Assembly (NCBI GenBank): GCA_017962745.1
Contig: JAGCUR010000013.1
Location: forward strand, 1,046 to 65,045
Reading direction: 5' to 3'
DNA: 64,000 bases
From: Bacilli bacterium
GTDB taxonomy: Bacteria > Bacillota_I > Bacilli_A > ML615J-28 > CAG-698
Part shown: positions 1-21,525 of the stretch, piece by piece
Position numbering within the stretch: position 1 is the first letter of the stretch
Layout: the number at the start of each line of letters is the position of its first letter
The notes under the pieces: generated by a model
What the model was told of the DNA's origin: nothing
Database searches by the model: none
Seen by the model: only the letters and a program-made list of their open reading frames with translations
Translations under genes and position numbers: made by a program

Positions 1-1078
1 GCTTAAACTCTACATCCCCTTTTACTTCCTCTAAGCTAATAGCATCCTGCTTATCAAGAGGTTCTGGAGTTGCATCGATTAGTTTAAATACCCTTTCACC
101 TGCTGCCAGTGCTGACTGGATATCCACAAATATATTAGCTATTTCGTTAATTGGTCCTGAGAACCTTCTTGAGTATTGAACAAAACTAGCAAGGTTACCA
201 ACTGTAAAGTTAGGATTAGTTAATAAAAGGATTGATCCAAACATACATACAAGTGATAACGATAAATTGTTAACAAAGTTAACACCAGGTCCCGTAATAC
301 TGCCATAAAACTCTGCTTTATAAGCAGCAGTTGTTGCTTTAGTGTTATACTCATCAAAGTTAGCTAATACTTTATCTTTAGTAGCATATGCCTTAATCGG
401 TTTAATTCCCGTGATCATTTCTTCCGAAAAACCATTTAACTCGCCTAAAGTTCTACTTCTAGCTCTAAACATCTTTTGCGTATGTTTAAGCATAAACCTC
501 GTAAATAAAAGTGAAATCGGAATCGTCACCGCAAATACTAATACTAATAGTGGTGATAAAATAATCATCATTATTAAAGAGCCAACAATTGTAATAGCTG
601 ATGTACAGATTTGGATTAAGTCACTAGAAAGCGATGTATTAATCGTATCAATGTCATAACTCATCCTTGAGATGATATCTCCTGTTTGATATGAATCAAA
701 GAAGGAAATCGGTAAGCTCATTAATCTAGAGAATGTATCAGCTCGCATCTTATAAACTATCTTTTTGCTCATCTTCATCATAATGATAGCTAGTACATAA
801 GAGAAGATACTAGATAAGATATAAAAGCCTAACATGAGCGATGTATAAATAAATATATCTTTTAAAATAACGCTATTTGCTTCCCCTACAATTAACGTTT
901 TTATATCGTCAACGATATGGCCAGATAATACCGGTCCAATCAAAGCAAACAGGTTTGCTAAAATGGTTAAGGCTAACGCTAGTAATAGCCACCATTTATA
1001 GTAATACATATAATCCCAAAGACGTCTTAATACATATTTAACGTCTTTTGGTTTTTCTTTTACTTTTGTGGATGACAT
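1..1078 (-). CDS. ABC transporter permease/ATP-binding protein, second subunit of a heterodimeric exporter (partial; 3' end beyond window start)
   Basis: Minus-strand ATG at 1076-1078 with a GAGG RBS 5 nt upstream. The frame stays open to the window edge. The by-eye translation (MSSTKVKEKPKDVKYVLRRLWDYMYYYKWW...) gives a hydrophobic N-terminal TMD typical of ABC exporters. It sits 11 nt downstream of the partner ABC gene. Confidence 0.6.
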   Translation of the reverse strand, partial: MSSTKVKEKPKDVKYVLRRLWDYMYYYKWWLLLALALTILANLFALIGPVLSGHIVDDIKTLIVGEANSVILKDIFIYTSLMLGFYILSSIFSYVLAIIMMKMSKKIVYKMRADTFSRLMSLPISFFDSYQTGDIISRMSYDIDTINTSLSSDLIQICTSAITIVGSLIMMIILSPLLVLVFAVTIPISLLFTRFMLKHTQKMFRARSRTLGELNGFSEEMITGIKPIKAYATKDKVLANFDEYNTKATTAAYKAEFYGSITGPGVNFVNNLSLSLVCMFGSILLLTNPNFTVGNLASFVQYSRRFSGPINEIANIFVDIQSALAAGERVFKLIDATPEPLDKQDAISLEEVKGDVEFK

Positions 1079-1088
1079 TCTACCTCTA

Positions 1089-2801
1089 CTATTCATGTTC
1101 ATCCCCCATTTGTAATTTATATGTATTCAAATATTCTTTGCTACTAGCAAGCAAATCATTATGAGTTCCGTATCCTACTTGTTTTCCATCTTCTAAAAGT
1201 AAGATATGGTTACAGTTAATAATTGAAGATATTCTTTCACTGATGATAATTGTAGTTGTATCTTTATTAAATTCTTTTAAAGCCTTTCTTAAATTAGCAT
1301 CAGTTTTATAATCAAGGGCACTTGAAGAATCATCAAGAATTAAAATATCAGGATTATTAGCGATTGCTCTAGCGATTAATAATCTTTGCTTTTGACCACC
1401 CGATACATTAGTACCTTTAGCCGCAATCATATAATCTAAGCCTTCTTTTTTAGAAAAGACAGTATCGGTTGCTTGTGCTACTTCGATGGCTTTAATAACT
1501 TGATCATCCGTTAAGTCACGATTGAATTTAATATTATCTTTAATCGAAGCGGAGAATAAAATATCATTTTGGAAAGCAACCCCAAACTTCTTCTTTAATT
1601 CTTCATCTTCCATCGATCTAATATCTTTACCATCGATTAAGATTTGGCCACTACCAATATCATATAGTCTTAAAAGTAAACTTATAATTGTTGTCTTACC
1701 TGATCCGGTTGGACCAATGATACCTAAGCTTTCGCCTTTCTTTAAAGCAAAGTTAATATCAGTTAAGTTATCGATTTTACCATTATAAGAAAAGTTTACA
1801 TTTTTAAACTCTACATGGATATCGCTATCTTCTTCATTAATATCTTCTTTCTTTAAATCTTCATCTAGACTAAAGACTGCTTCAATACGTTTTGCTGAAG
1901 CAATTGTACGGCTAGACATCGTAAAGATTCTAGTTACGCTTAACATTGCATTTAAAATTAAGTGGAAATAAGAAATAAAAGCAATGATCTTACCAACTTT
2001 AGTATCTCCACCAATTACTAAATATGCTCCTACAACTAATACACTTACTAAGCCGATATTTAAACATAAGTTAATAAGGGGACTTAAGCGCGCCATCATG
2101 TAACCAGCTTTTAATTCATTATCGATAACATGTTGGTTAACTTCTGAAAATCTTTCTTTTTCGTATTCTGTTTTTGATAATGCTTTAATCACTCTAATAC
2201 CAGTGACGCTTTCTCTTATATCTCTAACCATATCATCACTAGCATTTTGAATATCGGTATATAGTGGTATTCCTTTTTTAGAAATAAATACTGTAATTAA
2301 TACAATAAAAGGTAGGACTGCTAGTAATACTAAAGTTAGTTTCACATTTAATGTGAAAGTAACAATGATGCCACCAACTAGTAGAATCGGTGCTCTAACA
2401 CCAAGTCTTTGGATCATCCCCACAAAATGATGAACATTATATGTATCATTATTCATCCTTGAAATTAATGATGGAATCGTAATATCATCCATCTGCTTAG
2501 GACTCAAATCTTCAATACGTTTAAACAAATCATGCCTTAGGTCAGTTGTAACCATCATGGCAACTCTAGATGCCATTTGGTTAGCAAACATATTTCCTAA
2601 AAAGCAAGCTGCACTGCAGCCAATCATAATAATTCCATATATTATAATTGGCCTAATTTCCCCAAGTGGTACTAATTCATCAATGATAAATGATAAGATA
2701 TAGGGAATTACTAAATCCATTAAAGTTCCAAATATCTTAATCATTAAACCAATTAGCATTCTCGGAGTATATGGTTTAACATACTCTAATACTTTCTTCA
2801 T
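1089..2801 (-). CDS. ABC transporter ATP-binding/permease protein (multidrug-type exporter, fused TMD-NBD)
   Basis: 570 aa. Six-TM N-terminal half. Walker A GPTGSGKTT, ABC signature LSGGQKQR, Walker B ILILDD. Confidence 0.9.
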   Translation of the reverse strand: MKKVLEYVKPYTPRMLIGLMIKIFGTLMDLVIPYILSFIIDELVPLGEIRPIIIYGIIMIGCSAACFLGNMFANQMASRVAMMVTTDLRHDLFKRIEDLSPKQMDDITIPSLISRMNNDTYNVHHFVGMIQRLGVRAPILLVGGIIVTFTLNVKLTLVLLAVLPFIVLITVFISKKGIPLYTDIQNASDDMVRDIRESVTGIRVIKALSKTEYEKERFSEVNQHVIDNELKAGYMMARLSPLINLCLNIGLVSVLVVGAYLVIGGDTKVGKIIAFISYFHLILNAMLSVTRIFTMSSRTIASAKRIEAVFSLDEDLKKEDINEEDSDIHVEFKNVNFSYNGKIDNLTDINFALKKGESLGIIGPTGSGKTTIISLLLRLYDIGSGQILIDGKDIRSMEDEELKKKFGVAFQNDILFSASIKDNIKFNRDLTDDQVIKAIEVAQATDTVFSKKEGLDYMIAAKGTNVSGGQKQRLLIARAIANNPDILILDDSSSALDYKTDANLRKALKEFNKDTTTIIISERISSIINCNHILLLEDGKQVGYGTHNDLLASSKEYLNTYKLQMGDEHE

Positions 2802-2803
2802 AT

Positions 2804-3244
2804 CTAGTCCTCATAATTTAAGTCAATATAACTTGAAGCGTTATTAGCTACCTTTGTTAATAATTTGTTTAGTTCTTCTACTTCATCTTCTTTTAAGCCA
2901 TCAGTAATTATTTCATTAAATTTACCCATGGCTTCTTTAATATATGGCAAAGTATCATAGGCTTTCTTAGTTGGATATACTTTATATGCTCTTTTATCAT
3001 CTTCATTTACTTCACGATAAACGTATCCGGCATCAATTAATGTTTTGATACTTCTCGCAACGCTAGATTTATTAACATATACTTTTTTAGCCAAAGCATC
3101 TTGGCTAACTCCTTCGCTATGATTACATAAATAATAAATATACATATGATGCGATGGTAATAAATCAATATCCTTAAAAGCGATATTGCGATAAAGCATC
3201 GCACATCTTTCAGTTATGGAAATCCATCTTGTAATTCTTGCCAT
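2804..3244 (-). CDS. MarR family transcriptional regulator
   Basis: 146 aa. Winged-HTH region SQDALAKKVYVNKSSVARSIKTLIDAGYV. The gene sits immediately upstream of the ABC exporter pair. GAGGTG RBS. Confidence 0.85.
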   Translation of the reverse strand: MARITRWISITERCAMLYRNIAFKDIDLLPSHHMYIYYLCNHSEGVSQDALAKKVYVNKSSVARSIKTLIDAGYVYREVNEDDKRAYKVYPTKKAYDTLPYIKEAMGKFNEIITDGLKEDEVEELNKLLTKVANNASSYIDLNYED

Positions 3245-3254
3245 AGTTCACCTC

Positions 3255-3280
3255 TAATTAGTTGCATATGCAACTAATTA
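3255..3280. promoter_or_regulatory. 26-bp perfect palindrome TAATTAGTTGCATATGCAACTAATTA, a candidate MarR operator, with TGTATAAT extended -10 immediately upstream on the minus strand
   Basis: Read directly from the sequence. The palindrome lies between an extended -10 (minus strand, about 3281-3290) and the RBS of the MarR gene. This is the classic autoregulatory MarR layout. Confidence 0.6.
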
Positions 3281-3305
3281 CATTATACAACTATTCTTCT
3301 ACTTT

Positions 3306-3650
3306 TCAATAGATAATACAAAAATTCATTCCTTGATTAATAAATGCTTCAAATAAACCTAGGTTATATATAAAATCAGCTTCGGCGTTATTTCTCCATA
3401 AAAATATATAATCATCGTGATATTCTAAATATTTCTCGATTTCTAGTAACATCCTTGCAAGCCTATCACTAAAGCATTCCGATACAATATCATATTTAAC
3501 ACTTTTGCAGCCTTTAAAGATGGGGTATATTCTAATAATATTTAAGCCAATTAAAATGATCTCATCATCTATAAACTTAGAGCAGTTTTTACAATCAATA
3601 ATTTCTAATAAATCATTAAGATTTCTTCTTTTGTTTTTTATACAATACAT
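3306..3650 (-). CDS. hypothetical protein
   Basis: 114-aa ORF. I recognise no family. Cys-rich N-terminus (CKNCSKF). Confidence 0.4.
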   Translation of the reverse strand: MYCIKNKRRNLNDLLEIIDCKNCSKFIDDEIILIGLNIIRIYPIFKGCKSVKYDIVSECFSDRLARMLLEIEKYLEYHDDYIFLWRNNAEADFIYNLGLFEAFINQGMNFCIIY

Positions 3651-3696
3651 ATTAGCCTCCTAATATATATTTAACAAAACTCTCTCTTTTTTCTTA

Positions 3697-3727
3697 AACA
3701 AAAAAAAGTAGATACGATGTATCTACT
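3697..3727 (-). terminator. rho-independent terminator downstream of the LCP gene
   Basis: 8-bp stem AGTAGATA/TATCTACT with GATG loop, followed by a T-run on the minus strand. Confidence 0.6.
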
Positions 3728-3728
3728 T

Positions 3729-4718
3729 TTATTCTTCAGGTGCTTTATCATAGAATGTGGATATAACTAGTTCTTTTAAGTCTTCTTCGTAAGGAATAAA
3801 CTCGATTAAACCTTTGTTCTTTTGCGTATAGCCTTTAATTTGTTTAATTCCATTATAGTGGAATGTCTTTACATAATTTAAGATATCGGCCATATCCATA
3901 TATGTTACATCCATGCACACATAATTGTTAACGATATGCAAAGCATCTAAAATATCTGAGAAAGTATAATCGTTAGTTCTTGCTTTTCTAACTAATTCTT
4001 CCATATAGACTTGTTGACGGCGCATTCTAGAAATTTGCGTACCATCGCCAACTTCCATTCTAGCGCGAAGATATTTAAGGCAAGTATCACCAGTTAAAGT
4101 AATTGTTGCCCCTTCTTCCCAAGTAGGATCAATTACTGTTAAATCTTCTTCAAGAGTAATTGTTACTCCGCCTAGAAAATCATTAAGTAGGGGAACAGTA
4201 GTCATATTGATACCGATATATCTTTCAATATCAACACCCATCAATACTTTTGATGCAGCTCTACAAGTGTTTCTAAAACTCATATCGAGTCCATCACCAA
4301 CTGTATGAGCATAATCAATTTGCGTATACTTTGATCCGATTACTTTTCCGCTTAAACCTAAGACATCAACTTCTACCATTGTATCTCTACTTATTGGAAT
4401 AATTGTATAAGAACTATCTGTTAGATTAAATGATACTAAACAAATTAAATCATTTAATGCAGTATTGTTATATCCATTACTAGCTTTCATTTCACCAGTT
4501 GAATCAATACCAACGACTAAATAATTAACTGTGTCTTTAGCAATATATTTTTCACCATCGATATAAATGATTTCATGTTCCTTTGGCACATTTTGTGCTC
4601 TTTCAGTTTTACTACCTTGGGCAAATAAGAAATACCCACCAGCAATAGAACCTAAAGTAACCACTACACCAACAAGTGAAAGTATTATAATTAATAATAT
4701 TTTTCTTGCTTTTACCAT
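3729..4718 (-). CDS. LCP family protein (LytR-CpsA-Psr cell-wall glycopolymer ligase)
   Basis: 329 aa. N-terminal TM anchor. LCP motifs YLVVGIDSTGE and ...LNDLICLVSFN... Confidence 0.85.
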   Translation of the reverse strand: MVKARKILLIIILSLVGVVVTLGSIAGGYFLFAQGSKTERAQNVPKEHEIIYIDGEKYIAKDTVNYLVVGIDSTGEMKASNGYNNTALNDLICLVSFNLTDSSYTIIPISRDTMVEVDVLGLSGKVIGSKYTQIDYAHTVGDGLDMSFRNTCRAASKVLMGVDIERYIGINMTTVPLLNDFLGGVTITLEEDLTVIDPTWEEGATITLTGDTCLKYLRARMEVGDGTQISRMRRQQVYMEELVRKARTNDYTFSDILDALHIVNNYVCMDVTYMDMADILNYVKTFHYNGIKQIKGYTQKNKGLIEFIPYEEDLKELVISTFYDKAPEE

Positions 4719-4776
4719 AATCTAACACCTACTAATAATAAACTGCCTAGTTGCGCTAGGCAGTTTATAATTTTAA

Positions 4777-7029
4777 TTATTCTTCTGAGCCTTCATCACT
4801 TGGTGATAATAATTGTCCACCAGTTAATGCAACCATCTTAGCAACGCCTAATGTGTAAGCATCGCAATCAATTGTTAAGGCTTTATCCATCTTACCACGA
4901 GGTTTTAACTTGTAAGCTGTCATTGATTTATCTACACCTTTAACTTTTTCTTTGATTGCAGCTAAATCAACTGTAGCGCCTTCTTCAAATGCTTCACATA
5001 ATTGATCTGTGAATACTTCACCGAAGTTAGTCTTGTCAATTTCTCTATCTGAATGACCAACTAAGTTAAGTGCATCATTGTCATCCATATATTTGTTAAT
5101 GTTATAAACAGAAGTTTCTTTTAATAACTTGTATTGACGAGCTCTAGCTTTAGGTTTTTCGCCTCTTTCAACACTCATCTTAATTTGACCTTTAGCAATT
5201 AAAGTCTTTTCAGAATCGCCTCTGAACTCAGCTAATTCATCAATTGGTTCGTATTCTTTTTTCTTTTCAGCTTTAATATCTTTTAATAAGTCTTTTAAGA
5301 TGTTAAGAGCGTATTTAGTTCTTCTCATACTCTTAATCTTCATTACTGCGAAACCATCTTTATCAGGTTGTAATGGAGTCTTAGGATCGCTAGCGTATTT
5401 TTCAACATCAACTGTTAGATATAAGTTAAGTGTTTTACCACGAACCATTAATCTAGCAAATGTTTCTCTACTCTTTGCGAATGTTTCATGTTTCCATGAT
5501 ACTCTATTAGTAATTTGATATGAGCATAATAAGTCTTTAATTAATTGATAGCATTGTTGCATGCTTTCATCTAATGCTACTAATTTAGCAATGTGAGATT
5601 TATTGTAGTTGATTGATAAGTATTCATCTTTTTCTTCTACAACTTCTTCTTCAGCAGCGGCAGCAGCAGCAACGATTGGAACAACAACTGGTTCAACTTC
5701 TGGAGCAGCTTCTTCTTCAGGTGCTTCTTCAGCTTCTTCTGGAGCAGCTTCTTCTTCAGGTGCTTCTTCAGCAGCTGGTTCTTCAGCTACAGGTTCTTCT
5801 TCAGCAGGTGCTTCTTCCTCAGCTGGAGCTTCTTCTTCGTTAGCTTGTTCTTGTTCTTCTTCTGGAGCAGCTTCTTCTTCAGGTTCTTCTTCAGCAGGTT
5901 CTTCTTCTTTATCGTTCTTATCTCTCTTGAAGAAAATATAGATAACTAATAAGATGATGATGATTACTAATAAGATGATGATAACGATGAACATCCAGAT
6001 AGGACCTGAACTTCCACGTTCACCTTTTTCACCTTGATCACCTTTGTCACCTTTTTCGCCTTGTTGACCTTGTTGGCCTTGAGAACCTTCTGGACCTTGA
6101 GGACCTTGAGGGCCTTGAGGACCTACAGCACCTGGATCACCTTGTTGACCAGCAGCAGAGATACCTGTATCTGCGCCATTGATTACCCAGTTACCAGTAG
6201 TAGGATCAATTTCAATAGTTGGTGTATCACCAGCTTGACCTGGTTCACCTTGAGCAGCGATTCCAGTGTCTACGCCATCAATTTGCCAGTTACCATTATC
6301 ACCAATAGTGATTAGAGGACTATGTCCATCTTCACCAGCAGGACCTTGGATTGCAGTAGGAACTGCATTTTCATCAGGTTGTAAGAATGCAACTGGACAT
6401 AAGTGACTGAATTCAACTTCTAATTTTCCGTTTTCATCATCGTATGCAACTTTATCAGAATCAACAACTGTCCATTCTTTAGTTGCTTCATTTTGGTGAA
6501 TAACGACTGGTGATTTACCATTAGAAGATTGATAATCAAATTCGAATTTAATAGTTCCGCCAGCAGCGAATACTGCAGCGATTTCATCAGTTACTGATAA
6601 ATCGAATACTTGTTCAGCATCGAAGTCTTCAGATTTGTACATTTTACCATCAACTAATAAATTAGCTAATGCAGATTGAAGGGCTTCTTGACTTTCTTTT
6701 TGATCGCCTTCCAATGCAGCACCACTGAATATTTCACGTAAAGCTTGTGTTGCTTCGCTTAAAGCTTGAACTTTTTCAGGGTCTCCACCTTCTCCATCTA
6801 TTGGAGTGATAGTAACCTTTGATAAGTCAACACTAGTTTCAGATCCATCAGCATTAATCACAGTTGCAGTTGCTACTTCTGGAGTCTCAGCTGCGAATGG
6901 GCTACCAGCAGGGCTGCCAGTAGGACTTGCAGTAGGACTTGGTTCAGCAAATGCAACAGGGATACTAACTAATACTAATAACATTGCTACTATTACAACA
7001 AATAGCATTTTGAAATTAAATTTTCTCAT
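4777..7029 (-). CDS. type-I membrane protein with collagen-like (Gly-X-Y) ectodomain, acidic E/P/A-rich cytoplasmic linker and unknown C-terminal domain
   Basis: 750 aa. Signal peptide MRKFNFKMLFVVIVAMLLVLVSIPVAFA. GXY run GPQGPQGPQGPEGSQGQQGQQGEKGDKGDQGEKGERG. Twice-repeated motif GNW[QV]I[DN]G[VA]DTGI. Single TM IWMFIVIIILLVIIIILLVIYIFF. Then (EEAPE)n low complexity and a roughly 330-aa C-terminal domain. Confidence 0.8.
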   Translation of the reverse strand: MRKFNFKMLFVVIVAMLLVLVSIPVAFAEPSPTASPTGSPAGSPFAAETPEVATATVINADGSETSVDLSKVTITPIDGEGGDPEKVQALSEATQALREIFSGAALEGDQKESQEALQSALANLLVDGKMYKSEDFDAEQVFDLSVTDEIAAVFAAGGTIKFEFDYQSSNGKSPVVIHQNEATKEWTVVDSDKVAYDDENGKLEVEFSHLCPVAFLQPDENAVPTAIQGPAGEDGHSPLITIGDNGNWQIDGVDTGIAAQGEPGQAGDTPTIEIDPTTGNWVINGADTGISAAGQQGDPGAVGPQGPQGPQGPEGSQGQQGQQGEKGDKGDQGEKGERGSSGPIWMFIVIIILLVIIIILLVIYIFFKRDKNDKEEEPAEEEPEEEAAPEEEQEQANEEEAPAEEEAPAEEEPVAEEPAAEEAPEEEAAPEEAEEAPEEEAAPEVEPVVVPIVAAAAAAEEEVVEEKDEYLSINYNKSHIAKLVALDESMQQCYQLIKDLLCSYQITNRVSWKHETFAKSRETFARLMVRGKTLNLYLTVDVEKYASDPKTPLQPDKDGFAVMKIKSMRRTKYALNILKDLLKDIKAEKKKEYEPIDELAEFRGDSEKTLIAKGQIKMSVERGEKPKARARQYKLLKETSVYNINKYMDDNDALNLVGHSDREIDKTNFGEVFTDQLCEAFEEGATVDLAAIKEKVKGVDKSMTAYKLKPRGKMDKALTIDCDAYTLGVAKMVALTGGQLLSPSDEGSEE

Positions 7030-7192
7030 ATTCTTCTCCTTGTTTTTAAAAAAGTCTAATGCGTTTTATTACTCTCATAACAAAAATAGACACTTCTTTT
7101 CCTTATTTTACTGCCGATTTGTTTTTTTTTCAACATTTTGTTATTTTTTCATAATTAGTGAAAACACTTTCATTAAATTTTTTTATAATTTT

Positions 7193-7238
7193 TATAAAAA
7201 TAGCGCTTATCTAGTTAGCTAAACTAACTAAAAAGCGC
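7193..7238 (-). terminator. rho-independent terminator downstream of leuS
   Basis: Nested inverted repeats AGCGCTT...AAGCGC and TAGTTAG...CTAACTA, followed by a T-run on the minus strand. Confidence 0.5.
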
Positions 7239-7248
7239 AAATTTTCTT

Positions 7249-9666
7249 TTAAATTACAATACTTACTAACTTATTAGGTACTACAATTACTTTCTTAACT
7301 GGGTTATCACCCACATATTGTTTTACCTTTTCGTTAGCTAAAGCGATTCGTTCTAACTCTTCATTAGGTAGTCCTTTAGTAACTTCTACTTTATCTCTAA
7401 GTTTACCATTTACTTGGAAGACAACAGTTACTGTATCTTCATGAGTCTTAGCTTCTTCAAATGTTGGCCACTCTTCGTAGACGATACAGCCAGCTTCTGG
7501 TTTAAGCATACTATATAACTCTTCAGTAATATGTGGACAAATTGGATTTAGTAGTTTTAAGAAGCCTAAAGCATATTCAAGTGGTAAGTTAGGATCTTTG
7601 AAGCATTCATTCATGAATACCATCATTTGACTAATAGCCGTATTAAATCTTAAAGCAGTATAGTCTTCAGTAACTTTCTTAACTGTTTGATGATATAATC
7701 TTTCAAAGTTTTTATTCTCAGGAACGATATGTAACATCTCAGTATAGAATCTATAAACTCTATCTAAGAATCTATGTGGTCCTTCTACACCTTTAGTTGA
7801 CCATGGCTTAGTTGCTTCTAGTGGACCCATAAACATTTCATAAAGACGAAGTGTATCAGCACCATAATCCCTAACAACATCATCAGGATTAATGACATTG
7901 CCTCTACTCTTACTCATCTTTTCACCATCTACACCTAGAATCATTCCTTGGTTAAATAGTTTATGGAATGGTTCTTTACTATCTACAACTCCACAATCAT
8001 ATAATACTTTATGCCAGAATCTTGCATATAGTAAGTGAAGCACAGCGTGTTCAGTTCCACCAATATATAAATCAACTGGTAACCATTTATTTACTTCTTT
8101 TTGAACTTCTTTATCACTTAATGGTAAGAAATCATCACCATCTTTTAGTAAGTAACCAATATAGTACCAACAAGATCCAGCCCATTGAGGCATTGTATTT
8201 GTTTCTCTTCGGCCTTTAACACCATCACTTCTAACTACTTCTAGCCATTCATGCGCATTAGCTAGTGGGCTTTCACCATTATGAGATAGAGTAACTCGCT
8301 TCATTACTGGTAGTTCAAGTGGTAAATCTTTTTCTTCTAGGACACTAACTTTACCATCTTCCCAGAAGATTACTGGGAATGGTTCACCCCAATATCTTTG
8401 ACGGCTAAAGATCCAATCTCTTAGCCTGTAATTTACATCTTTATAACCGATACCTTTTTCACTTAAGAAAGCGATCATTTTATCAATTGCATCTTGCTTA
8501 TTTAAACCATTTAAGAATTCAGAATTGATATGGATACCATCTCCAGTGTAAGCACCACTTGTCATATCGCCTTCAAGGACTTGGATGATATCGATATTAT
8601 ATTTCTTAGCAAAATCATAATCTCTTTCATCATGAGCAGGAACTGCCATGATAGCACCAGTTCCATAACTAGAAAGTACATAATCAGCTATCCAAATTGG
8701 TAACTTCTTACCATTAGCTGGATTAATGGCATATGCTCCTGTAAAGCAGCCGGTTTTTTCTTTATTTAAATCAGTTCTTTCTAGATCACTTTTAGCTTTC
8801 GCAAAATCAACGTAAGCTTGTACATCTTTTAAGTGGCTAGCTGGTGTAATCTTCTTAACAAGTTTATGTTCAGGAGATAATACACAATATGTAGCACCAA
8901 ATAAAGTATCAGCTCTAGTAGTAAATACTTCAAATGTTTCATTAGTGCCATCAACTTTAAATGTGATCTTAGCACCAACTGATTTACCAATCCAGTTCTT
9001 CTGCATTTCTTTTACGTTATCTGGCCAATCAAGTAAATCAAGATCTTCTAATAATCTTTCTGCGTAAGCAGTAATCTTTAAAACCCATTGCTTCATTGGT
9101 TTTTTAACAACTGGGTAGCTACCTCTTTCACTTACCATCTTACCATTATCGTTTAATACTTCTTCGTTTGCTAAAACGGTACCTAATTCTTCACACCAGT
9201 TAACTTCAATATTTTTAACTTCAGCTAATCCTTTTTCATAAAGTTTAGTAAAAATCCATTGTGTCCATTTAAAATATTTAGGATCACAAGTGGCAAGTTC
9301 TTTACTCCAGTCAAAAGATAAACCTAACATTTGTAATTGGTTTTTAAATATTTCAATATTGCGATATGTGAAATCAGCTGGTGAATTACCAGTGTTAATA
9401 GCATATTGTTCAGCAGGCAATCCGAATGCATCAAATCCCATTGGATGAAATACTGCATATCCTTGCATTCTTTTCATTCTTGAAACGATGTCAGTAGCAG
9501 TGTAGCCTTCAGGATGACCGACATGTAAACCTGCTCCACTAGGATATGGGAACATATCTAGTGCATAAAACTTTTCTTTATTTGTTACAAGTGGTTGTTT
9601 AAAGACCTCATTTTCAGCCCAATACTTTTGCCACTTCTTTTCGATTTGTGTAAAATTATAACTCAT
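7249..9666 (-). CDS. leuS: leucine--tRNA ligase
   Basis: 805 aa. Class-I HIGH motif HVGHPEGY and KMSKS motif. Overall LeuRS architecture. Confidence 0.95.
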
Positions 9667-9677
9667 AATCTTATCTC

Positions 9678-10496
9678 CTAATTTCTTCTAATGCTTAATA
9701 ATTGGTTGGAAGCAATCATATTATAAATTACTGCTAGCACAATCCCAATCATATATATAAATCTAAGTCCAAATAATTCTGATAATAATCCGCTTACCAC
9801 CATTGGTGATAGCGCGTAACATGCAATTACATAATTTTCTTTAAATGAAATTATTCTTCTAGTGATTAACCTTTGTACTAAGGCGAGGACTACTCCGATC
9901 GCTAACATAATACCGAGGTTCGATAAAGTATAGCCAATGATTACTCCTATCGTAACATATGGAATATATCTTTTAATTTCTTTATTAACTACATTAAATA
10001 TATCATTCCAAAATTCATAATTTTGATCTGATATGGCATGATGTAAATTGATATTTGTTAACTCCGGATACTCTTCATACTTAAACATTGGCAGCGATGT
10101 AGCAAACCTACCATTTAAATAATAATAAATACTAACGCCATTTTCTAAAAAGACAATGCGGTAACTTGTTTTCTTTTCAGGATCAGATAATTCTTTTAGA
10201 GCAAATGTTACCATAATCTCTTCATCGATATAATAATCAGATAGCATTACTTCACTCGTATTAGATAATTTATTATTAACAATTGTGTAAGGTACTTCTT
10301 TATCCTTAAATGTATCTTGAATCTTTAATCTCTCATCGAGTGATAATTTATCAAACCTAGCTACTTTAATACTAGCCGGTATCATCATAATAAAGGCGAG
10401 TAGTAAAATGTAAACAAAGACCAAACCAAAACTATCAACACGCATGTTGATGATTTCAGTTGGGACAAATAAAGCTGTCTTTAATCTTTTAATCAT
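9678..10496 (-). CDS. hypothetical polytopic membrane protein (possibly DUF1189-like)
   Basis: 272 aa with several TM helices. It ends 11 nt upstream of leuS, so it is probably co-transcribed. Confidence 0.45.
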
Positions 10497-10593
10497 TTTA
10501 TCACCTTTAACTTGTATGCATTATATCACATTTTTTGCCTATCAACAATACACTTTTATGCAGTTTAATCTATTATTAATAACTGATTATTTC

Positions 10594-11421
10594 CTACTTA
10601 TACCAATTGGGATAGCATTCAATTTCAACTTTTTCGTTAGTTATTGGGTGCCTAAATCCTAATTTATAGCAGTGTAGCATCAGCTCACCATCGCCATCGC
10701 CATATAATTTATCCCCTAAAAGTGGGTGATTATGGTAGGCAAAATGCACTCTAATCTGGTGAGTCCTACCAGTAAGTAGCCTTGCTTCTACAGTAGATAC
10801 ATCGCCATTTTCTAACACTTTATAAATCGTATGAGCACTTTTGCCATCGCTAAATACCCATCTTTTAATGTTAATTTCTTCTACTCTTCGAATCGGATCA
10901 GTGTACTCACCTTCTAATTCTTCAAAAGAATTATGCACTTTACACAAATATAATTTGTCAAATTTGGCGTTATTTAGAAGGTTATGGACATATCCATTCT
11001 TGGCAATTAAGACAATACCACTTGTAGAAAAGTCGAGCCTAGTGACAATATGGATGTTAGAATCAATGCCTTTTTCTAAATAATATTTCTTAACTGAACT
11101 TATTAAGTTATCTTCTTGATGCCTTTTAGATGGCTGAATAGCTAGGTTAGATTGCTTATTTACGATTAGTAAATAATCATCTTCATAAAGAATATCGAGT
11201 GGGATATCATTAGTTTTAAAGTCTTCATTTAGCTTTTCATTATATTCTATTTCAATAATATCGCCTTTATTTACTTCGTAATAATTCTTTACGAGATTAC
11301 CATTTACATAAGCAATATCTTCTAATCTTACTCTTTTTAAAAGATTGCGTGATACGCCTTGCAGTTTTAAATAATCTTTTAATTTAATATTATCTTGATC
11401 TACTACATACTTAATTTTCAT
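10594..11421 (-). CDS. RluA family pseudouridine synthase
   Basis: 275 aa. Catalytic motif VTRLDFSTSGIVLIAKN and an N-terminal S4-like region. Confidence 0.85.
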   Translation of the reverse strand: MKIKYVVDQDNIKLKDYLKLQGVSRNLLKRVRLEDIAYVNGNLVKNYYEVNKGDIIEIEYNEKLNEDFKTNDIPLDILYEDDYLLIVNKQSNLAIQPSKRHQEDNLISSVKKYYLEKGIDSNIHIVTRLDFSTSGIVLIAKNGYVHNLLNNAKFDKLYLCKVHNSFEELEGEYTDPIRRVEEINIKRWVFSDGKSAHTIYKVLENGDVSTVEARLLTGRTHQIRVHFAYHNHPLLGDKLYGDGDGELMLHCYKLGFRHPITNEKVEIECYPNWYK

Positions 11422-11444
11422 ATAATCATTATACTCTTAATTAT

Positions 11445-11477
11445 AATAAAATAAAAGACCATACAATGCATGGTCTT
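11445..11477 (-). terminator. rho-independent terminator downstream of the EF-G-like gene
   Basis: Perfect 8-bp stem AAGACCAT/ATGGTCTT with a 7-nt loop, followed by a T-run on the minus strand. Confidence 0.65.
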
Positions 11478-11484
11478 AAATGCT

Positions 11485-13425
11485 TTATTGAGCTTGTTTG
11501 TATTCGTCACAAATCTTCTTGATTAACATTTCAGGAACTTCTTCGTAACGAACGAATTTTCTTGAGAATCTACCACTTGCTTGAGTCATAGCTTTTAAGT
11601 CAGTAGTATATTTAATGATTTCAGCTTCAGGAACTTCAGCGATAATCTTGCTCTTGCCGCCTTCCATTTCTTCAGTAGATAAGATACGGCCACGACGTTT
11701 AGTCATATCACCCATGATAGCTCCGAAGTATTCTGATTTAGCGATTACTTCTACTTCCATAATAGGTTCTAAGATTGTAGGACGTAATTTATCAACAGCA
11801 TTCTTGAATGCTAATCCAGCAGCGATAACGAATGAAATTTCGTTAGAATCTACTGGATGGTAGCTTCCATCATATAGAGTAGCCTTAACTTTGATTACAG
11901 GGAATCCAGCTAATGGGCCATGTTCTAGTACTTTAATTAAACCTTTTTCTACAGCAGGGAAGTAGTTTTTAGGAACTGATCCACCGAAGATTTCTTCGCA
12001 GAATTCGAAGTCTTTATCAGTAGGTTCAAATCTAATCCAAACATCACCGAATTGTCCAGCACCACCAGATTGCTTCTTATGACGTCCTTGAGCTTCACCT
12101 TTAGAGCGAATTGTTTCTCTATAAACAATCTTAGGATCTGCTAAGTCAACATCTACTTTATACATATTCTTCATCTTTTCAAGAATATATCCGATGTGAG
12201 TCATACCTTGACCACCGATTAAAGTTTGAGATGTTTCAGCATTTCTCTTGATTTCGAATGTTTCATCTTCTACAGATAACTTTTGTAAAGCTGTAGAGAT
12301 CTTTTCTTCGTCTTGTTTATTCTTAGGGTTAATTGCTACATAGATTGTAGGAGTTGGATGTTCTTCCTTCTTGAAAGTAACCATATCTTTCTTATCACAT
12401 ACTGTGCAGCCTGTGAATAAGTTAGCCATCTTAGCAACTGCTACGATATCACCAGCAAATGCAGCATCAACTGGAATTTGAGTCTTACCCATCATTGAGA
12501 ATAATTGGCTCATTTTTAATGCTTCACCAGTATTTGCTAAAACTGCTTCTTGCGCAACTTTTACAGATCCTGAGCAAACTTTTAAGAAGTTGATTGAACC
12601 AACGAATGGGTCAGAAATTGTCTTAAATACTTTTGCACTGAATGGAGCGGCATCGCTTACCTCTCTTACTACTTCTTTACCAGCAGCATCGATTCCTTTG
12701 ACAGGAGCAACGCTACAAGGAGATGGTAATACATCGATTACTTTATCCATTAATTCTTTAACGCCTTCATTCTTAATTGCACTTGCAGTAACAATTGGGA
12801 AGAAGTCACAGTTTAGAGTAGCATTTCTTAAACCTTTAACAGTATCTTCTTCGCTTAACTCTAATTCTTCTAAATATTTATTTAATAATTCTTCATCACT
12901 TTCAGCAGCAATTTCCATTAATTCTTCACTGAATGGAGCATTAACTTCTTTTGCATGGCTTGATAATTCATCATTAATTTCAGCTAGTACAGCATCCATC
13001 TTAACATTTTCTTTATCAGTCTTATTGATCAAGATTAATGTAGGGATCTTACGAGCACGTAATTCGTCCCAACATCTTTCAGTACCAACTTGAACACCAC
13101 TTGATGCATCGATTAATAATACAGCACCCTCTACTACACTTAATACATTTTCGATTTCACCGATGAATTCTTCAGAACCTGGAGTATCAATGAAATTGAT
13201 TTTGTATCCATTATATTCTACTGGGATTAAACTAGCAGTTAGTGTAGTTTGTCTGTTTTGTTCTTCAGCTGTATAGTCACCAACAGTATTCTTTCTTTCA
13301 ACTTCGCCCTTAGCTTTAATAGCTCCACTTACGAATAGTAAGCTTTCAGCTAATGATGTTTTACCAGTTCCTAAGTGACCTAGTAAAGCGACGTTTCTAA
13401 TTTGTTTGCTATGATATTCTTTCAT
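11485..13425 (-). CDS. elongation factor G family translational GTPase (EF-G paralog / ribosomal-protection-like)
   Basis: 646 aa. G1 GHLGTGKTS, G3 DTPGSEEF (atypical; EF-G has HVDF), G4 NKTD. EF-G domains II-V are recognisable. Confidence 0.75.
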   Translation of the reverse strand: MKEYHSKQIRNVALLGHLGTGKTSLAESLLFVSGAIKAKGEVERKNTVGDYTAEEQNRQTTLTASLIPVEYNGYKINFIDTPGSEEFIGEIENVLSVVEGAVLLIDASSGVQVGTERCWDELRARKIPTLILINKTDKENVKMDAVLAEINDELSSHAKEVNAPFSEELMEIAAESDEELLNKYLEELELSEEDTVKGLRNATLNCDFFPIVTASAIKNEGVKELMDKVIDVLPSPCSVAPVKGIDAAGKEVVREVSDAAPFSAKVFKTISDPFVGSINFLKVCSGSVKVAQEAVLANTGEALKMSQLFSMMGKTQIPVDAAFAGDIVAVAKMANLFTGCTVCDKKDMVTFKKEEHPTPTIYVAINPKNKQDEEKISTALQKLSVEDETFEIKRNAETSQTLIGGQGMTHIGYILEKMKNMYKVDVDLADPKIVYRETIRSKGEAQGRHKKQSGGAGQFGDVWIRFEPTDKDFEFCEEIFGGSVPKNYFPAVEKGLIKVLEHGPLAGFPVIKVKATLYDGSYHPVDSNEISFVIAAGLAFKNAVDKLRPTILEPIMEVEVIAKSEYFGAIMGDMTKRRGRILSTEEMEGGKSKIIAEVPEAEIIKYTTDLKAMTQASGRFSRKFVRYEEVPEMLIKKICDEYKQAQ

Positions 13426-13497
13426 ATTCGATAATCTCCTTTATTTGTCCTTTACCATTATACTATATATAAGTATCTTTTACTAGTTTTTTTTATT

Positions 13498-15777
13498 TTA
13501 TTCAATTCCTTCTTTATAATGGCCATATGTCACATCATCTAAATCATATTCTTCAATATACTTATCATTATTTAGATATGCATTAAAGGCTTCAAGATAC
13601 TCTTCAATTACTAATTCATAATCTTCTTCTACACTTAAATCGACAAGTAAATTGTTAACGCCCATCTTCAAAAGTTCATCAACTTGATTCACTAAATGTA
13701 GTCTCTTTGAATTAAGTAGTTTTAAATGACATGCTCCATCATTTACAAGTGGGAATTTATAACCTAGTCTATCTACTAAATAATACTTACTAGCCTTACA
13801 TGCTCCGCAGCCTAGCTTATCATAGCCTAAAGCTTTATTAATTAAGCAATGCTTCATAATCATTAATTCATAATATCCATATACCATAACCATGATATTA
13901 GGAATATTACCATATACATGTTTATAAGTATCAATAGTTGATTTAATGTCATCCTTACTTGCTTCGATTGACATACCAACAATCTCGCACCCATTCTCTA
14001 ACATATTTCTTACACTAGCATAATTAATAATATTAGAATAAACATTAACCACTTTCTTATTATATATACTGTTATTATTAATTCTACGGTCAACTAGTAT
14101 TACATTTAATTCTTCATCAAGCAATTTATATTTATTAGCTGCTTCATATAAATTCTTATCATCAACTAATAAATCTTTAACACCCTGATTTATACAAGCT
14201 TCTAATTGATTCAAATTACTTACTTTAAAGAATAGATGTTTATCATTACTGCTATATACTTCTTTTGTACTTGGAATAAATTTGTTAACTCTAACTTCTT
14301 TATTTCCTTTTCTTATATTATTAAGAGCATCAATGGCTTTTCTTCTTAATTCATTAATCTCTTTAATCGGTAAGAATATTAAATCAGTTATTTCAATATT
14401 TCTAAATTCATATACTGAATCACTAGTCTTTCTAAGTTGTTCTATTTGTCTAGATTTAATATCAGCATTCTTAGCCGCTTCATATGGATAATCCGACTTA
14501 ATAGTTACTTTGTTTTTACCATCACTAATTTGTAAGCAGGCAACATCATCTAGATAAAGTTTGGCATCAAGCAATACTTTATCTTCTTTTTTATTAATAA
14601 CTTCATCTTCTAAATTAGCATCACTAGTCTTAAGCACAGTGGCACCAACTTCAGCTACCTTGTGTACTTTTATTTGAATTAAGTCACCAGCTTTAGCGAA
14701 AGTTCCTTTAATGCCATTAACAAACATTTCATTAACGATAACAGCATCGTTATCTTTATTTAGAATTCTTAAGCCATCACCACTTCTAATGCTATCTTCT
14801 AATTTAATATAAGCATAACCATTATTGTACTTTGTAACTTTACCTACTTTAATACCTATGTGGTTAGATGTAGCTACATTAGAAAAATGTTTATTATCTT
14901 CATTAAATAAATAGCCTTTAGTAAATGTACGATTAAACATTACTGCTAAATCTTTTTTATAGTTAGCTACTTGTTCACTATCAAGCATACTATCGATTGC
15001 TTTTCTATATCTATTAGTGATTAAGCCAACATATTCTGGTCTTCTCATTCTACCTTCTAGTTTGATTGATGTAACACCAATGTTAGCTAGCTTATCTACA
15101 TTTTCAATTTCACATAAATCTCTTGGACTTAAATAAAATCTCTTTTGTCCTTTAGTTTCATCATCTTTAACTAGTTCATAAGATAGTCTACAAGGTTGAG
15201 CACATTTACCTCTATTGCCACTTCTTTTACCAATTACACTTGATAAATAGCAGTTACCTGAATAGCACATACATAATGCTCCATGGGCAAATACTTCTAC
15301 TTCAATATCTACTTCTTCAATAATCTTTTGGACTACTTCGATTGGTGTCTCACGGGCAAGGATGATTCTTTTAAAGCCAAACGCTTTTAAATCCTTAGCG
15401 TGATTTACGCTTAAGCAATTCATTTGCGTTGAAGCATGCAATACTAAATCCGGATATACTTGCTTTAAAATCGATGCTAATCCTAAATCTTGAATGATGA
15501 TTGCATCTACTCCACCTTTGTAAAGTTCCCCTACAAAATCAACGCAGCTAGATAACTCGCTATTTTTAATTATCGTATTGACCGTAACATATACTTTCTT
15601 ATCACGGATATGGGCATACTCAATAGCTTCAATTAATTCTTCAGTTGTAAAGTTAGTAGCATATGCTCTAGCACCAAAGTTTTTACCAGCGATATATACG
15701 GCATCAGCCCCATTATTAATTGCCAGTTTAAATGAAGTCATATCACCAGCTGGTGCTAATAATTCTAATCTATTCAT
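13498..15777 (-). CDS. U32 family peptidase (collagenase-like, with long C-terminal extension)
   Basis: 759 aa. U32 signature EVFAHGALCMCYSGNCYLSSVIGKRSGNRGKCAQPCR. Confidence 0.85.
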   Translation of the reverse strand: MNRLELLAPAGDMTSFKLAINNGADAVYIAGKNFGARAYATNFTTEELIEAIEYAHIRDKKVYVTVNTIIKNSELSSCVDFVGELYKGGVDAIIIQDLGLASILKQVYPDLVLHASTQMNCLSVNHAKDLKAFGFKRIILARETPIEVVQKIIEEVDIEVEVFAHGALCMCYSGNCYLSSVIGKRSGNRGKCAQPCRLSYELVKDDETKGQKRFYLSPRDLCEIENVDKLANIGVTSIKLEGRMRRPEYVGLITNRYRKAIDSMLDSEQVANYKKDLAVMFNRTFTKGYLFNEDNKHFSNVATSNHIGIKVGKVTKYNNGYAYIKLEDSIRSGDGLRILNKDNDAVIVNEMFVNGIKGTFAKAGDLIQIKVHKVAEVGATVLKTSDANLEDEVINKKEDKVLLDAKLYLDDVACLQISDGKNKVTIKSDYPYEAAKNADIKSRQIEQLRKTSDSVYEFRNIEITDLIFLPIKEINELRRKAIDALNNIRKGNKEVRVNKFIPSTKEVYSSNDKHLFFKVSNLNQLEACINQGVKDLLVDDKNLYEAANKYKLLDEELNVILVDRRINNNSIYNKKVVNVYSNIINYASVRNMLENGCEIVGMSIEASKDDIKSTIDTYKHVYGNIPNIMVMVYGYYELMIMKHCLINKALGYDKLGCGACKASKYYLVDRLGYKFPLVNDGACHLKLLNSKRLHLVNQVDELLKMGVNNLLVDLSVEEDYELVIEEYLEAFNAYLNNDKYIEEYDLDDVTYGHYKEGIE

Positions 15778-15829
15778 ATACCCTCCTACAATTAATAAAG
15801 CGAATAGATTATCTACTCGCTTATTATTT

Positions 15830-16675
15830 TTATTCTTTTACGATATATAAAATACCAATAGTTCTTGGTCCACAATGAGCAGCGATAACGCTACTTGCAT
15901 TCGTTTCTACAAGATTATCAATTTGGACATCACGTTTCTTTAATTCATCCATTAGATAAATAGCATCTTCATGTGTATCAGGATGTGTAACAAATACGAA
16001 ATCAGGATCGATATTATTAATATCCGCATCAAACATTTCTAATTGTAGATCTAATGCTTTCTTAAAATTACCGATTGGCTTTTTAGCAACTACCATTTTA
16101 CCATCAACTACTTTTACGATTGGTTTAATCTTAAGTAGTGTACCAAATAATCTAGCAGTTCCTGAACATCTTCCACCTTTATGTAAGTAATCAAGCGTAT
16201 CAATCGCAAACTGCGTTCTAACTCTTGGTTTAATCTTTTCGATTTCCGCTACGATTTCTGGAGCACTCATTCCAAGGTCACGAAATTTAGCAGCTTTTAA
16301 TAAAAGTAAGCCAATACCTGTAGATAAGTTAGCACTATCAATTGGATAGAAGTTAGGACATTCTTCACTAGCAATTCTAGCGTTATTAAATGTACCTGAA
16401 ATTCCACCACTTATACCCATATAGATGACATCTTCATCTTCTGGATATTCTTTCACTAAATCAACAAAGAATGCTGGTGGTACACTAGCAGTGTGTGGCA
16501 TTTGGCCTGTCTCATCAATTAGTTTAAATAACATCTTAGTATCGATGTCAACGCCACCTTTGTATGATTTTTCCCCAATGTTAATAATTAATGGGAATTC
16601 TCTAATACCATACTTCTCTTTTAATTCAGGTGTTAAGTCAGATGTGCAATCTGTAATTATATTTACTTTTCTCAT
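15830..16675 (-). CDS. DegV family fatty-acid-binding protein
   Basis: 281 aa. The DegV N-terminal pattern MRKVNIITDCTSDL matches over full length. Confidence 0.85.
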   Translation of the reverse strand: MRKVNIITDCTSDLTPELKEKYGIREFPLIINIGEKSYKGGVDIDTKMLFKLIDETGQMPHTASVPPAFFVDLVKEYPEDEDVIYMGISGGISGTFNNARIASEECPNFYPIDSANLSTGIGLLLLKAAKFRDLGMSAPEIVAEIEKIKPRVRTQFAIDTLDYLHKGGRCSGTARLFGTLLKIKPIVKVVDGKMVVAKKPIGNFKKALDLQLEMFDADINNIDPDFVFVTHPDTHEDAIYLMDELKKRDVQIDNLVETNASSVIAAHCGPRTIGILYIVKE

Positions 16676-16737
16676 AATTTACCTCTCGCTAGTTTAATTA
16701 TATATTCTTTACTACGTTTAAACAATGTTTTTGTTTA

Positions 16738-20116: not shown

Positions 20117-20282
20117 GGTTACTCCCCTTCTTATCTAACTATTGCATTTTACCATAAATAGCATCCATTTACAATAAAATGAGAAATGTAAAAGGTTACA
20201 GCTATTGAAATTATGAGAGTTATCTGTGATTATTTATTTCATTAAACACGCTTTATAATAAATTAGATATTTTAATAATATA

Positions 20283-20345
20283 ATTAAAAAGAAATGATAA
20301 TCAATAATTAGCATCTATTATGCTTTATTAATAATTATCATTTCT
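20283..20345 (-). terminator. nested inverted repeat / terminator at the distal end of the Rhs-immunity locus
   Basis: 11-bp perfect IR GAAATGATAAT...ATTATCATTTC with an inner AGCAT/ATGCT stem, followed by a T-run on the minus strand. Confidence 0.5.
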
Positions 20346-20376
20346 CAATTGTGACATTTTTTCACAAACTAATATA

Positions 20377-21525
20377 TTATTGTAAAAACTCATATATAAA
20401 GAATCTATGGCTATCAATGTCTACCGTTAGAACTAGATATTCATCATATTTGAAGTAATCTATTTCGTTTTCTTTCAATCCTTCAATAGAATATACAAAA
20501 CAATAATCTATTTCCTCGTTGCTAATCGTTAGAGCAACATCGTATGGAAAATCGCTTGGATTACATTTTATAAAATCATTATTATTTTTAAGTTCATTAA
20601 ACTTTATAGCAAATTCATCTTCATTTGTTGTTGTAACAACAATTTCTCTAGTTGATTTGACAACTCTGCTTTCAATAATTGCATTTTTTGGTAATTGATA
20701 ACTTATTTTACTTTCAATATTCTTGATGATATCTGAATCGTAAGTAACAGGTGATACCCTTTGAAGGACTACGGAAAATGTGAACGCTAATAAAGCAAAC
20801 GATATTACTAATATTGATGTAATAAAAAACTTCTTCGCTTGTAGTAACAATCTCTTCCAAAATGCAGCAAAACATAACAAAAACATTGCTGGGATCATAC
20901 TTAATATGAATATCCACGATAAACTCATTACTTTGTCAACATACCAATAATAATCATTAGCTATTATTTTTGTTATCAAAAGACCAATAGGAAATACGTT
21001 CAAAGTGGTAATAAACAATAAATCCGTTATGGATGATGTATACACAATCTTTCTATCACTAATTTTACATCTACTCATATGCACATCATTGATACCTTGT
21101 TTACAATGCATGCTTAAGTAATCAATATATTCCTTTCGTTTATAAATTTTTACGTCATACATCTTTTCATTTGCGATGATATTACAATCAAAATATCCTC
21201 GAGAATTTAATGTATACATATACTTTTTTATGTCTGAAAGTTTAATAATATCGTTTTTTATACCTCTTAATATGTATAGCTTTTCATCTGTTCCAATCAC
21301 TTTATACTGAGTTTCGAATAGCACTATGAAATATATGATGGATAAAAAAAGCACAAAAATAATTGGTATTATGCGAACAAAAAAGTTTACTTTTCTATCC
21401 ATCAGCCAACTCGTCAACATTGACACAGCGAAAATAATTGATGGTAAAAAAATAGCAACCGCAGTAGCATTTTTGTTATAATCCACAAAAGAATAAATAC
21501 TTGAATCTTTGCTTTTATTAACCAT
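20377..21525 (-). CDS. polytopic membrane protein, candidate immunity protein for the orphan Rhs toxin cassette
   Basis: About 382 aa from the ATG at 21523-21525 (AGGTG RBS). The track ORF starts at an upstream GTG. Several TM helices. It overlaps the 3' end of the orphan CT by 8 nt. Confidence 0.6.
   Translation of the reverse strand: MVNKSKDSSIYSFVDYNKNATAVAIFLPSIIFAVSMLTSWLMDRKVNFFVRIIPIIFVLFLSIIYFIVLFETQYKVIGTDEKLYILRGIKNDIIKLSDIKKYMYTLNSRGYFDCNIIANEKMYDVKIYKRKEYIDYLSMHCKQGINDVHMSRCKISDRKIVYTSSITDLLFITTLNVFPIGLLITKIIANDYYWYVDKVMSLSWIFILSMIPAMFLLCFAAFWKRLLLQAKKFFITSILVISFALLAFTFSVVLQRVSPVTYDSDIIKNIESKISYQLPKNAIIESRVVKSTREIVVTTTNEDEFAIKFNELKNNNDFIKCNPSDFPYDVALTISNEEIDYCFVYSIEGLKENEIDYFKYDEYLVLTVDIDSHRFFIYEFLQ

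Follow-up and report, generated by a model that had tools for sequence, protein, structure and literature searches.

A collagen-stalked membrane protein from a large uncharacterised family may link a surface fibre to DNA or RNA inside the cell

Gene and protein architecture

The window analysed here, a 64,000-nucleotide (nt) stretch of contig JAGCUR010000013.1 (positions 1,046 to 65,045; assembly GCA_017962745.1) from a Bacilli bacterium of the CAG-698 lineage, carries on its minus strand, at 4777..7029, an ATG-initiated open reading frame (ORF) of 750 amino acids (aa) that encodes a membrane protein with a collagen-like stalk and a folded C-terminal module. This protein is a rare collagen-stalked variant of a large, uncharacterised module family. 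The ATG is preceded, at a distance of a few bases, by an aaggag ribosome-binding site, three independent metagenome contigs of 65-154 kb carry the identical 750-aa protein, and relatives that are 94-95% identical keep the same reading frame. The features of the gene, in order of transcription, are as follows (TM, transmembrane; AF2, AlphaFold2).

7105..7133, minus strand: promoter-like site upstream of the gene (TTGAAA-17-TAAAAT), a consensus match only
6946..7029, minus strand: signal peptide, aa 1-28 (MRKFNFK, an 18-residue hydrophobic core, AFA/EP), by sequence rules
6892..6945, minus strand: short S/P/T/G-rich linker, aa 29-46
6355..6891, minus strand: head domain, aa 47-225, two long helices plus a beta-sandwich with weak GAIN/ZU5-like matches (AF2, Foldseek)
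6397..6405, minus strand: H-L-C, aa 209-211, in the turn between the last two beta-strands of the head, a GPS-like position (AF2 model and sequence)
6001..6354, minus strand: collagen/GNW stalk, aa 226-343
5929..6000, minus strand: TM helix, aa 344-367, composed entirely of I/L/V/F, with no helix breakers
5908..5928, minus strand: positively charged stop-transfer sequence KRDKNDK, aa 368-374, a pattern repeated across the family
5635..5907, minus strand: acidic E/A/P-rich linker, about aa 375-465, presumed disordered
5275..5622, minus strand: basic N-terminal sub-domain of the module, aa 470-585, net charge +8, isoelectric point (pI) 9.5, predicted DUF1801/YjbR/MotA-C-terminal-like fold
5050..5274, minus strand: connector sub-domain, aa 586-660
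4801..5049, minus strand: uL15 C-terminal-like domain, aa 661-743
4738..4768, minus strand: hairpin with a 14-bp stem between the stop codon and the downstream gene, possibly a weak terminator

This layout makes it very probable, as far as the sequence can tell, that the product is a Sec-exported, single-pass type I membrane protein (N-out, C-in). The signal peptide is followed by a 315-aa ectodomain (aa 29-343) and by a TM helix, IWMFIVIIILLVIIIILLVIYIFF, that is without G, P, N or S and has a Kyte-Doolittle value of 3.9; beyond it come a highly acidic stretch (aa 372-465: 40% E, 22% A, 12% P, net charge -43) and the folded C-terminal region (aa 466-750). Homologue architectures place the module in the cytoplasm: 35 soluble relatives have no signal peptide, and K/R residues follow the last TM segment nearly everywhere. 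Sortase anchoring was ruled out by the lack of an LPXTG motif (pattern LP.[TSA]G), as was lipoprotein status by the lack of a lipobox on inspection of the signal peptide. The all-I/L/V/F helix is compatible with a stable oligomeric anchor and argues against intramembrane cleavage.

A sequence-only reading of this locus had listed a signal peptide, an ectodomain with a Gly-X-Y run and two copies of GNWxIxGxDTGI, one TM helix and an acidic stretch, all of which are present. Its further proposal, collagen outside the cell and a large folded domain inside, agrees with a clear-cut TM helix followed by K/R; the helix is a true TM segment and the C-terminus is not a cell-wall-binding module. The lysine-rich C-terminal domain is also there (13% Lys), at about 285 aa instead of the 330 first given. 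Among family representatives only the species cluster of this protein shows the combination of collagen with a cytoplasmic domain, which bears out the rarity ascribed to it.

A conserved cytoplasmic module

The C-terminal domain had been taken to have no recognisable family. Pfam, NCBIfam and PHROGs do give no match to this region of the window protein itself, and a word-indexed search with it finds two close relatives only, one of them labelled 'Bacilli bacterium'. The description does not hold: an exhaustive phmmer search against 1.84 billion representatives returned 1,820 matches at E<=1e-3 (673 at E<=1e-10), each a representative cluster of one family. The module also has a uL15-homologous end and a DUF1801/YjbR/MotA-like basic domain. 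The family matches fall into separable parts, namely an N-terminal sub-domain (query 1-155), often repeated and present in up to 7 copies, and a C-terminal part (approximately query 195-276). An AF2 model of the module built on a 30-sequence family alignment headed by the window protein (A1) has a mean predicted local distance difference test score (pLDDT) of 91.4 and a predicted TM-score (pTM) of 0.74. A1 contains invariant motifs within the module, and conservation is strong across the 1,820 clusters. Source databases label members as 'hypothetical', 'ribosomal protein L15/outer membrane biosynthesis protein TonB' or 'L18E/predicted transport protein', and in the literature we found no description of the module family and nothing relevant on uL15-type membrane proteins, Ribosomal_L27A or collagen-TM proteins.

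The last ~80 residues of the module resemble uL15 (PF00828, TIGR01071) in both profile and fold. PF00828 (uL15/L18e/L27A) is matched by the C-terminal part of 9 out of 10 homologues scanned, eight of them above the gathering score (35-43 bits vs 21.5) and one below it (17.5 bits); the A1 profile matches uL15 chains in the PDB at E=6e-13 to ~1e-9, the window sequence alone at E=0.016, and Foldseek matches this part of the modelled module to uL15 in the PDB with probability 1.0. TIGR01071 scores 30-34 bits in homologues, under its cut-off of 77.95, and is aligned at profile positions ~61-143 only. This profile and predicted-fold evidence makes aa 661-743 a homologue of the globular domain at the C-terminus of uL15. 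The window protein is nevertheless not a ribosomal protein: unlike uL15, its module has no N-terminal extension, is membrane-tethered and is fused to other domains. The uL15-like domain has a family median charge of +3.5.

With the A1 family profile, the basic N-terminal sub-domain has no sequence match in the PDB. By Foldseek its modelled alpha/beta fold resembles YdhG/DUF1801 (9t2w, 2oc6), YjbR (2fki), DUF419 (2a1v) and the C-terminal DNA-binding 'double-wing' domain of T4 MotA (5jlt, 1kaf), at probabilities of 0.72-1.0 and target-normalised TM-scores of 0.39-0.56. For 9t2w, 2fki, 5jlt, 1kaf and 2oc6 these values are 0.77-1.0 and 0.48-0.56, and the best matches to YdhG/DUF1801, YjbR and MotA reach 0.98-1.0 and 0.5-0.56. 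A repeat of one homologue only (P0006) matches DUF1801 (PF08818) below threshold (E=6e-5, 23.8 bits vs 27.2). The window protein differs from DUF1801, YjbR and MotA in giving no significant sequence match to them, and its family in having up to 7 repeats and membrane tethering. All 30 aligned members have a positively charged basic sub-domain (net +5 to +17, median pI 9.8).

Distribution and contexts of the module

In a survey of 190 family representatives, 99 have an N-terminal hydrophobic anchor only, 49 carry, ahead of their last TM segment, an ectodomain that measures 100 to ~4,100 aa, 35 are complete proteins with neither a signal peptide nor any hydrophobic segment, and the remaining 7 are fragments. 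The module is thus recurrently linked to surface proteins, though it is also found in other contexts. K/R follows the last TM segment in nearly all membrane-bound relatives, whose linkers are 20-45% acidic; relatives that appear to have two membrane segments read TM, KRKK, short hairpin, KKK, an order that still leaves the module inside the cell. Named carriers are Clostridia, Christensenella-like bacteria, Erysipelotrichaceae, 'Mollicutes' and Bacilli metagenome-assembled genomes (MAGs), mostly from the gut, and a genome scan with a narrower alignment (A2) returned, among the matches listed, mostly one Clostridia/Christensenellales subgroup. The plasmid and phage collections that we searched contain no match to the module.

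Five of the soluble proteins (P0010, P0012, P0014, P0019 and P0020; 1,100-1,750 aa) contain DUF2357 together with the basic sub-domain in 3-7 copies. In McrC, a type IV restriction component, DUF2357 forms the N-terminal domain, and McrC-type restriction components often have fused target-recognition domains (PMC11090510). These proteins may be an undescribed McrC-like class in which the basic sub-domain is a new target-recognition repeat.

Two loci (L048 1874-8119 and L050 358-8122) show the same architecture split over two adjacent genes. The first encodes a Flg_new surface protein of 1,704 or 2,209 aa that ends in a coiled-coil stalk, a TM segment and KKRK, and the second, 13 nt later, a protein of 372 or 373 aa composed of a hydrophobic hairpin and then the cytoplasmic module. 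At another locus, in a Clostridia MAG (L047 7001-9012), a sigma-70-family gene lies 100 nt beyond a short-form family gene, a pairing that is not conserved in our survey of 34 loci.

The collagen/GNW stalk

Between head and membrane, short Gly-X-Y runs are broken by two TPxIxI...GNWxIxGxDTGI modules (aa 239-258 and 269-291, with exact GNWxIxGxDTGI copies at aa 246-257 and 279-290), after which an uninterrupted Gly-X-Y run of 50 residues, ~17 triplets, extends over aa 294-343. This run reaches 32.5 bits with Pfam Collagen (PF01391), for which the gathering score is 27.2. The Scl1/Scl2-type models NF038329 and NF038330 fail (31.8 bits vs 325 and 18 vs 400), and a further NCBIfam collagen-like model scores 29.1 vs a cut-off of 500. 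Other NCBIfam matches, among them SAG1386/EF1546, EbpS and GltJ, are to low-complexity or TM sequence, far below cut-off, and were rejected. The stalk would probably make the protein a trimer, to judge from its Gly-X-Y composition.

Comparison with L001 and P0003 (94-95% identical over the C-terminal module), P0004 (72%) and the more distant P0032 reveals how the stalk has changed. In P0004 and P0032 the last strand of the head (..SLCPVAFL..) runs straight into the TM helix; at this point, Gly-X-Y and GNW modules add ~118 to >150 residues in the lineage of the window protein. Because the 72%-identical P0004 has no such block, the alignment indicates that the block is a recent lineage-specific insertion, and one of variable length. 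A check of Gly-X-Y repeat number in homologues, which the sequence-only reading had proposed, found that both the number of triplets and their sequence vary between near-identical strains: the window protein reads GPQGPQGPQ... where its relatives read GQNGQNGQDG..., and L001 and P0003 have an additional (GQQ)n block between the GNW modules, where L001 also has a scaffold gap. The block resembles collagen-flanked segments of phage tail fibres (PHROG matches with E down to 1e-15; tblastn matches to nine phage records).

The stalk shares with Scl1/Scl2, Lcl and BclA a Gly-X-Y sequence rich in charged residues and Gln, an N-terminal globular head and a repeat number that varies between strains. 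It differs from them in that the Gly-X-Y sequence is interrupted by GNW modules of the phage tail-fibre kind, and that the protein has a TM anchor and a 380-aa cytoplasmic part instead of LPXTG.

The head domain and its relation to GAIN and MAIN domains

Although only four sequences were available to model it, the head is predicted by AF2 as a confident single domain (pLDDT 88, pTM 0.83) of three N-terminal strands, two long helices and a seven-strand sandwich. Homology searching with the head found nothing, and it is common only to P0003, P0004, P0032 and L001. Against the PDB, Foldseek lists the GAIN domain of BAI3 (probability 0.92, E=0.03, 97 columns), ankyrin ZU5 (probability 0.4-0.63) and CD97; these matches are weak, none reaching E<=1e-3, and no viral fold matches the head significantly. 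Its final two strands are joined by a turn with the sequence S-H-L-C (aa 208-211). Conservation does not extend to the His: the closest relatives, with 80% identity over the head, have D-S-L-C, and more distant ones D-S-L-C or T-S-L-C.

Microbial GAIN ('MAIN') domains, to which structure-based annotation gives the label ZU5, cleave themselves at HF/S in the turn that precedes the last strand and are positioned between large ectodomains and a sortase, S-layer homology (SLH) or wall anchor (Brogan & Rudner, bioRxiv 10.64898/2026.05.12.724683). MAIN proteins such as B. subtilis YfkN have a signal peptide, an extracellular beta-sandwich and a surface anchor in the same order as the window protein, and an H-hydrophobic-nucleophile sequence in the turn before the last strand. 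The anchor of the window protein, in contrast, is a TM helix with a large conserved cytoplasmic module, as opposed to sortase, SLH or wall-binding domains; it has Cys for Ser/Thr, relatives lacking the His and no support from sequence profiles; and its head carries no N-terminal cargo and is separated from the TM helix by the collagen stalk. Profile-profile comparison (hhalign) of the head with 16-17 canonical or degenerate juxtamembrane HFS-type domains gave probabilities below 1%, from thin alignments (effective number of sequences 1.9). On the model and the turn motif, membership of the window protein among MAIN domains is possible.

Other members of the module family come closer, many of them having canonical HFS domains just before the TM segment. 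Of the 49 ectodomain-bearing relatives, 11 have the canonical ..F.T.HFS.YA(I/V)V directly before the TM segment (ten found by scan and P0045 by eye), ~6 have a His-less (K/E/S)-L-S variant there, 4 have SLCP(V/I)A, and in ~15 the element next to the membrane is helical and unrelated. At the level of sequence motifs, the pairing of canonical HFS domains and the cytoplasmic module in family members is solid. We did not find it in the MAIN preprint, and PF00828, L15, YjbR and MotA are not among the entries listed for its supplementary tables.

Proposed mechanism and alternative explanations

We propose that the protein is a collagen-stalked fibre with a cytoplasmic polyanion-binding module, a reading to which we give an even chance. 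Outside the cell, a 180-aa head would be carried on a short collagen-like stalk that trimerises the protein and keeps the head away from the membrane. Inside, the very acidic and disordered spacer would carry the three-part module (basic domain, connector, uL15-like domain), which would bind a cytoplasmic polyanion, most likely nucleic acid in the form of DNA or structured RNA. In this way the protein and its many relatives would form a physical bridge from an element of the membrane or surface to the nucleoid or to RNA, with the acidic spacer acting as a stand-off or as an intramolecular competitor. Nucleic-acid binding is suggested by the two predicted folds, the invariant basic charge of the first sub-domain and its multiplication in McrC-like proteins, and the homology to uL15; any coupling or signalling through the protein is a further conjecture.

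This proposal must be tempered by several observations that weigh against it. The DUF1801/YdhG fold is also that of an iron-chaperone-type protein (PDB 9t2w, labelled frataxin) and is by itself no proof of nucleic-acid binding. The uL15-like domain of the window protein is slightly acidic (net -2), the window protein alone fails PF00828, and the module has no counterpart of the long basic extension at the N-terminus of genuine uL15. In the 34 loci no neighbouring gene is conserved that would point to a pathway. Seventeen triplets are also short for a collagen helix that is stable at 37 C.

The module could instead be a pure anchor or plug, the protein being an adhesin or fibre whose linker and module have no specific ligand and only block extraction of the TM helix. 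That the module follows giant adhesin-like ectodomains, where it replaces sortase or SLH anchoring, fits such a role, as does the lack of a conserved partner gene, and on physical reasoning a linker of net charge -43 would be very costly to pull through the bilayer. We consider this unlikely because an inert plug would explain neither the strong conservation over 1,820 clusters, with invariant motifs, nor the half of the family in which there is no ectodomain to hold, the 35 soluble members and the reuse of the basic sub-domain in McrC-like proteins. Tethering of the ribosome or its rRNA, with the uL15-like domain docking on 23S rRNA or on an assembling or hibernating 50S subunit at the membrane, draws on the clear sequence-level homology to uL15 and on the mildly basic character of that domain in the family. 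Much of the rRNA contact of uL15 is made by its basic N-terminal extension, precisely the part that is missing here, and the window copy of the globular part is acidic; we hold this to be very improbable, and it is in any case a special case of the favoured reading, not a true alternative. Derivation from a prophage gene for a tail fibre or receptor-binding protein, or the artificial fusion of two genes during assembly, is effectively refuted. The tail-fibre likeness of the collagen/GNW block is its sole attraction, and it is countered by the housekeeping-type neighbours (see below), by retention of the frame on three contigs and in the 94-95% identical relatives, by the absence of the module from phage and plasmid collections and by a head without significant viral fold match.

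A more elaborate possibility is a mechanosensor of the adhesion G-protein-coupled receptor (GPCR), Notch or RsgI type, in which a MAIN head self-cleaves at H-L/C, force removes the head, the remaining stub is cut within the membrane and the freed nucleic-acid-binding module alters gene expression. Some MAIN-like surface proteins would then be wired through a TM helix and acidic spacer to a nucleic-acid-binding module, and the window protein would be a collagen-stalked member with a Cys nucleophile. The structural matches to BAI3, ZU5 and CD97, the location of H-L-C at the HX(S/T) site of GAIN and MAIN domains, and the HFS motifs (with their ~6 His-less counterparts) before the TM segment of ectodomain-bearing relatives speak for such a scheme, and the authors of the MAIN preprint associate no signalling mechanism with the retained fragment as yet (bioRxiv 10.64898/2026.05.12.724683). 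It conflicts with the profile-profile probability below 1% between the head and canonical HFS domains, the absence of the His from the closest relatives, a Cys nucleophile that falls outside the tests of that preprint, the lack of anything N-terminal of the head to release, the stalk between head and membrane, and the 99 of 190 family members that have no ectodomain. Intramembrane proteolysis in particular is down-weighted because the TM helix, being purely I/L/V/F, offers no helix-destabilising residue. Residues of that kind are usual in the TM segments of site-2-protease substrates. The mechanosensor, and the wiring of MAIN-like proteins that it implies, therefore seem to us quite improbable. 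The likeness to eukaryotic membrane collagens, and to adhesion GPCRs and Notch, in which an extracellular collagen or GAIN element is wired to an intracellular domain, is an analogy only: the window protein has type I instead of type II orientation and no seven-transmembrane domain, and there is no evidence of kinship or signalling.

Genomic neighbourhood

The gene for the collagen-stalked protein lies among housekeeping-type genes: leuS, a DUF1189 gene, a pseudouridine synthase gene (rluD-type), and genes for an EF-G-like GTPase, a peptidase U32 and an LCP (LytR-CpsA-Psr) protein. The LCP gene (3729..4718, minus strand) is 58 nt downstream of the collagen-protein gene; it is also downstream in the 94% identical relative L001, and this position is kept only in that closest relative. 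Its presence implies a cell wall with attached glycopolymers. After it comes a 114-aa ORF without family (3306..3650, minus strand). On the other side, in 7249..9677, leuS starts 11 nt after the DUF1189 gene. In many Firmicutes leuS is under T-box control; Rfam found no T-box leader and only four tRNAs in the window.

In 1..64000 the minus strand carries every ORF of at least 200 aa, and GC skew stays negative over the full length; the whole window lies on one replichore with its genes co-oriented. The part with the lowest guanine-plus-cytosine (GC) content, 23-27% vs ~32% elsewhere, contains a 1,845-aa ORF without Pfam match (23280..28817, minus strand), followed by three more ORFs of 287-385 aa (20377..23310, minus strand), again with no Pfam match. 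This region could be a foreign island or encode another giant surface protein.

Significance

Known bacterial collagen-like and GAIN-like surface proteins are wall-anchored fibres with an inactive inner end; here the inner end is a conserved module, spread over at least 1,820 protein clusters of gut Bacillota (Clostridia, Erysipelotrichaceae and other Bacilli). Both recognisable folds of the module are of nucleic-acid-binding type, and one is reused in McrC-like restriction proteins. If the module does bind DNA or RNA, the family would represent a widespread and undescribed coupling of the cell surface to the nucleoid or the translation machinery, and the module would supply the signalling half that, according to the MAIN preprint, is still to be found. 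Were some MAIN-like proteins also wired to it in this way, bacteria would have a route from surface mechanics to DNA or RNA that resembles those of adhesion GPCRs and Notch. Even without nucleic-acid binding, the module is a new domain family and a new type of surface-protein anchor in abundant gut bacteria.

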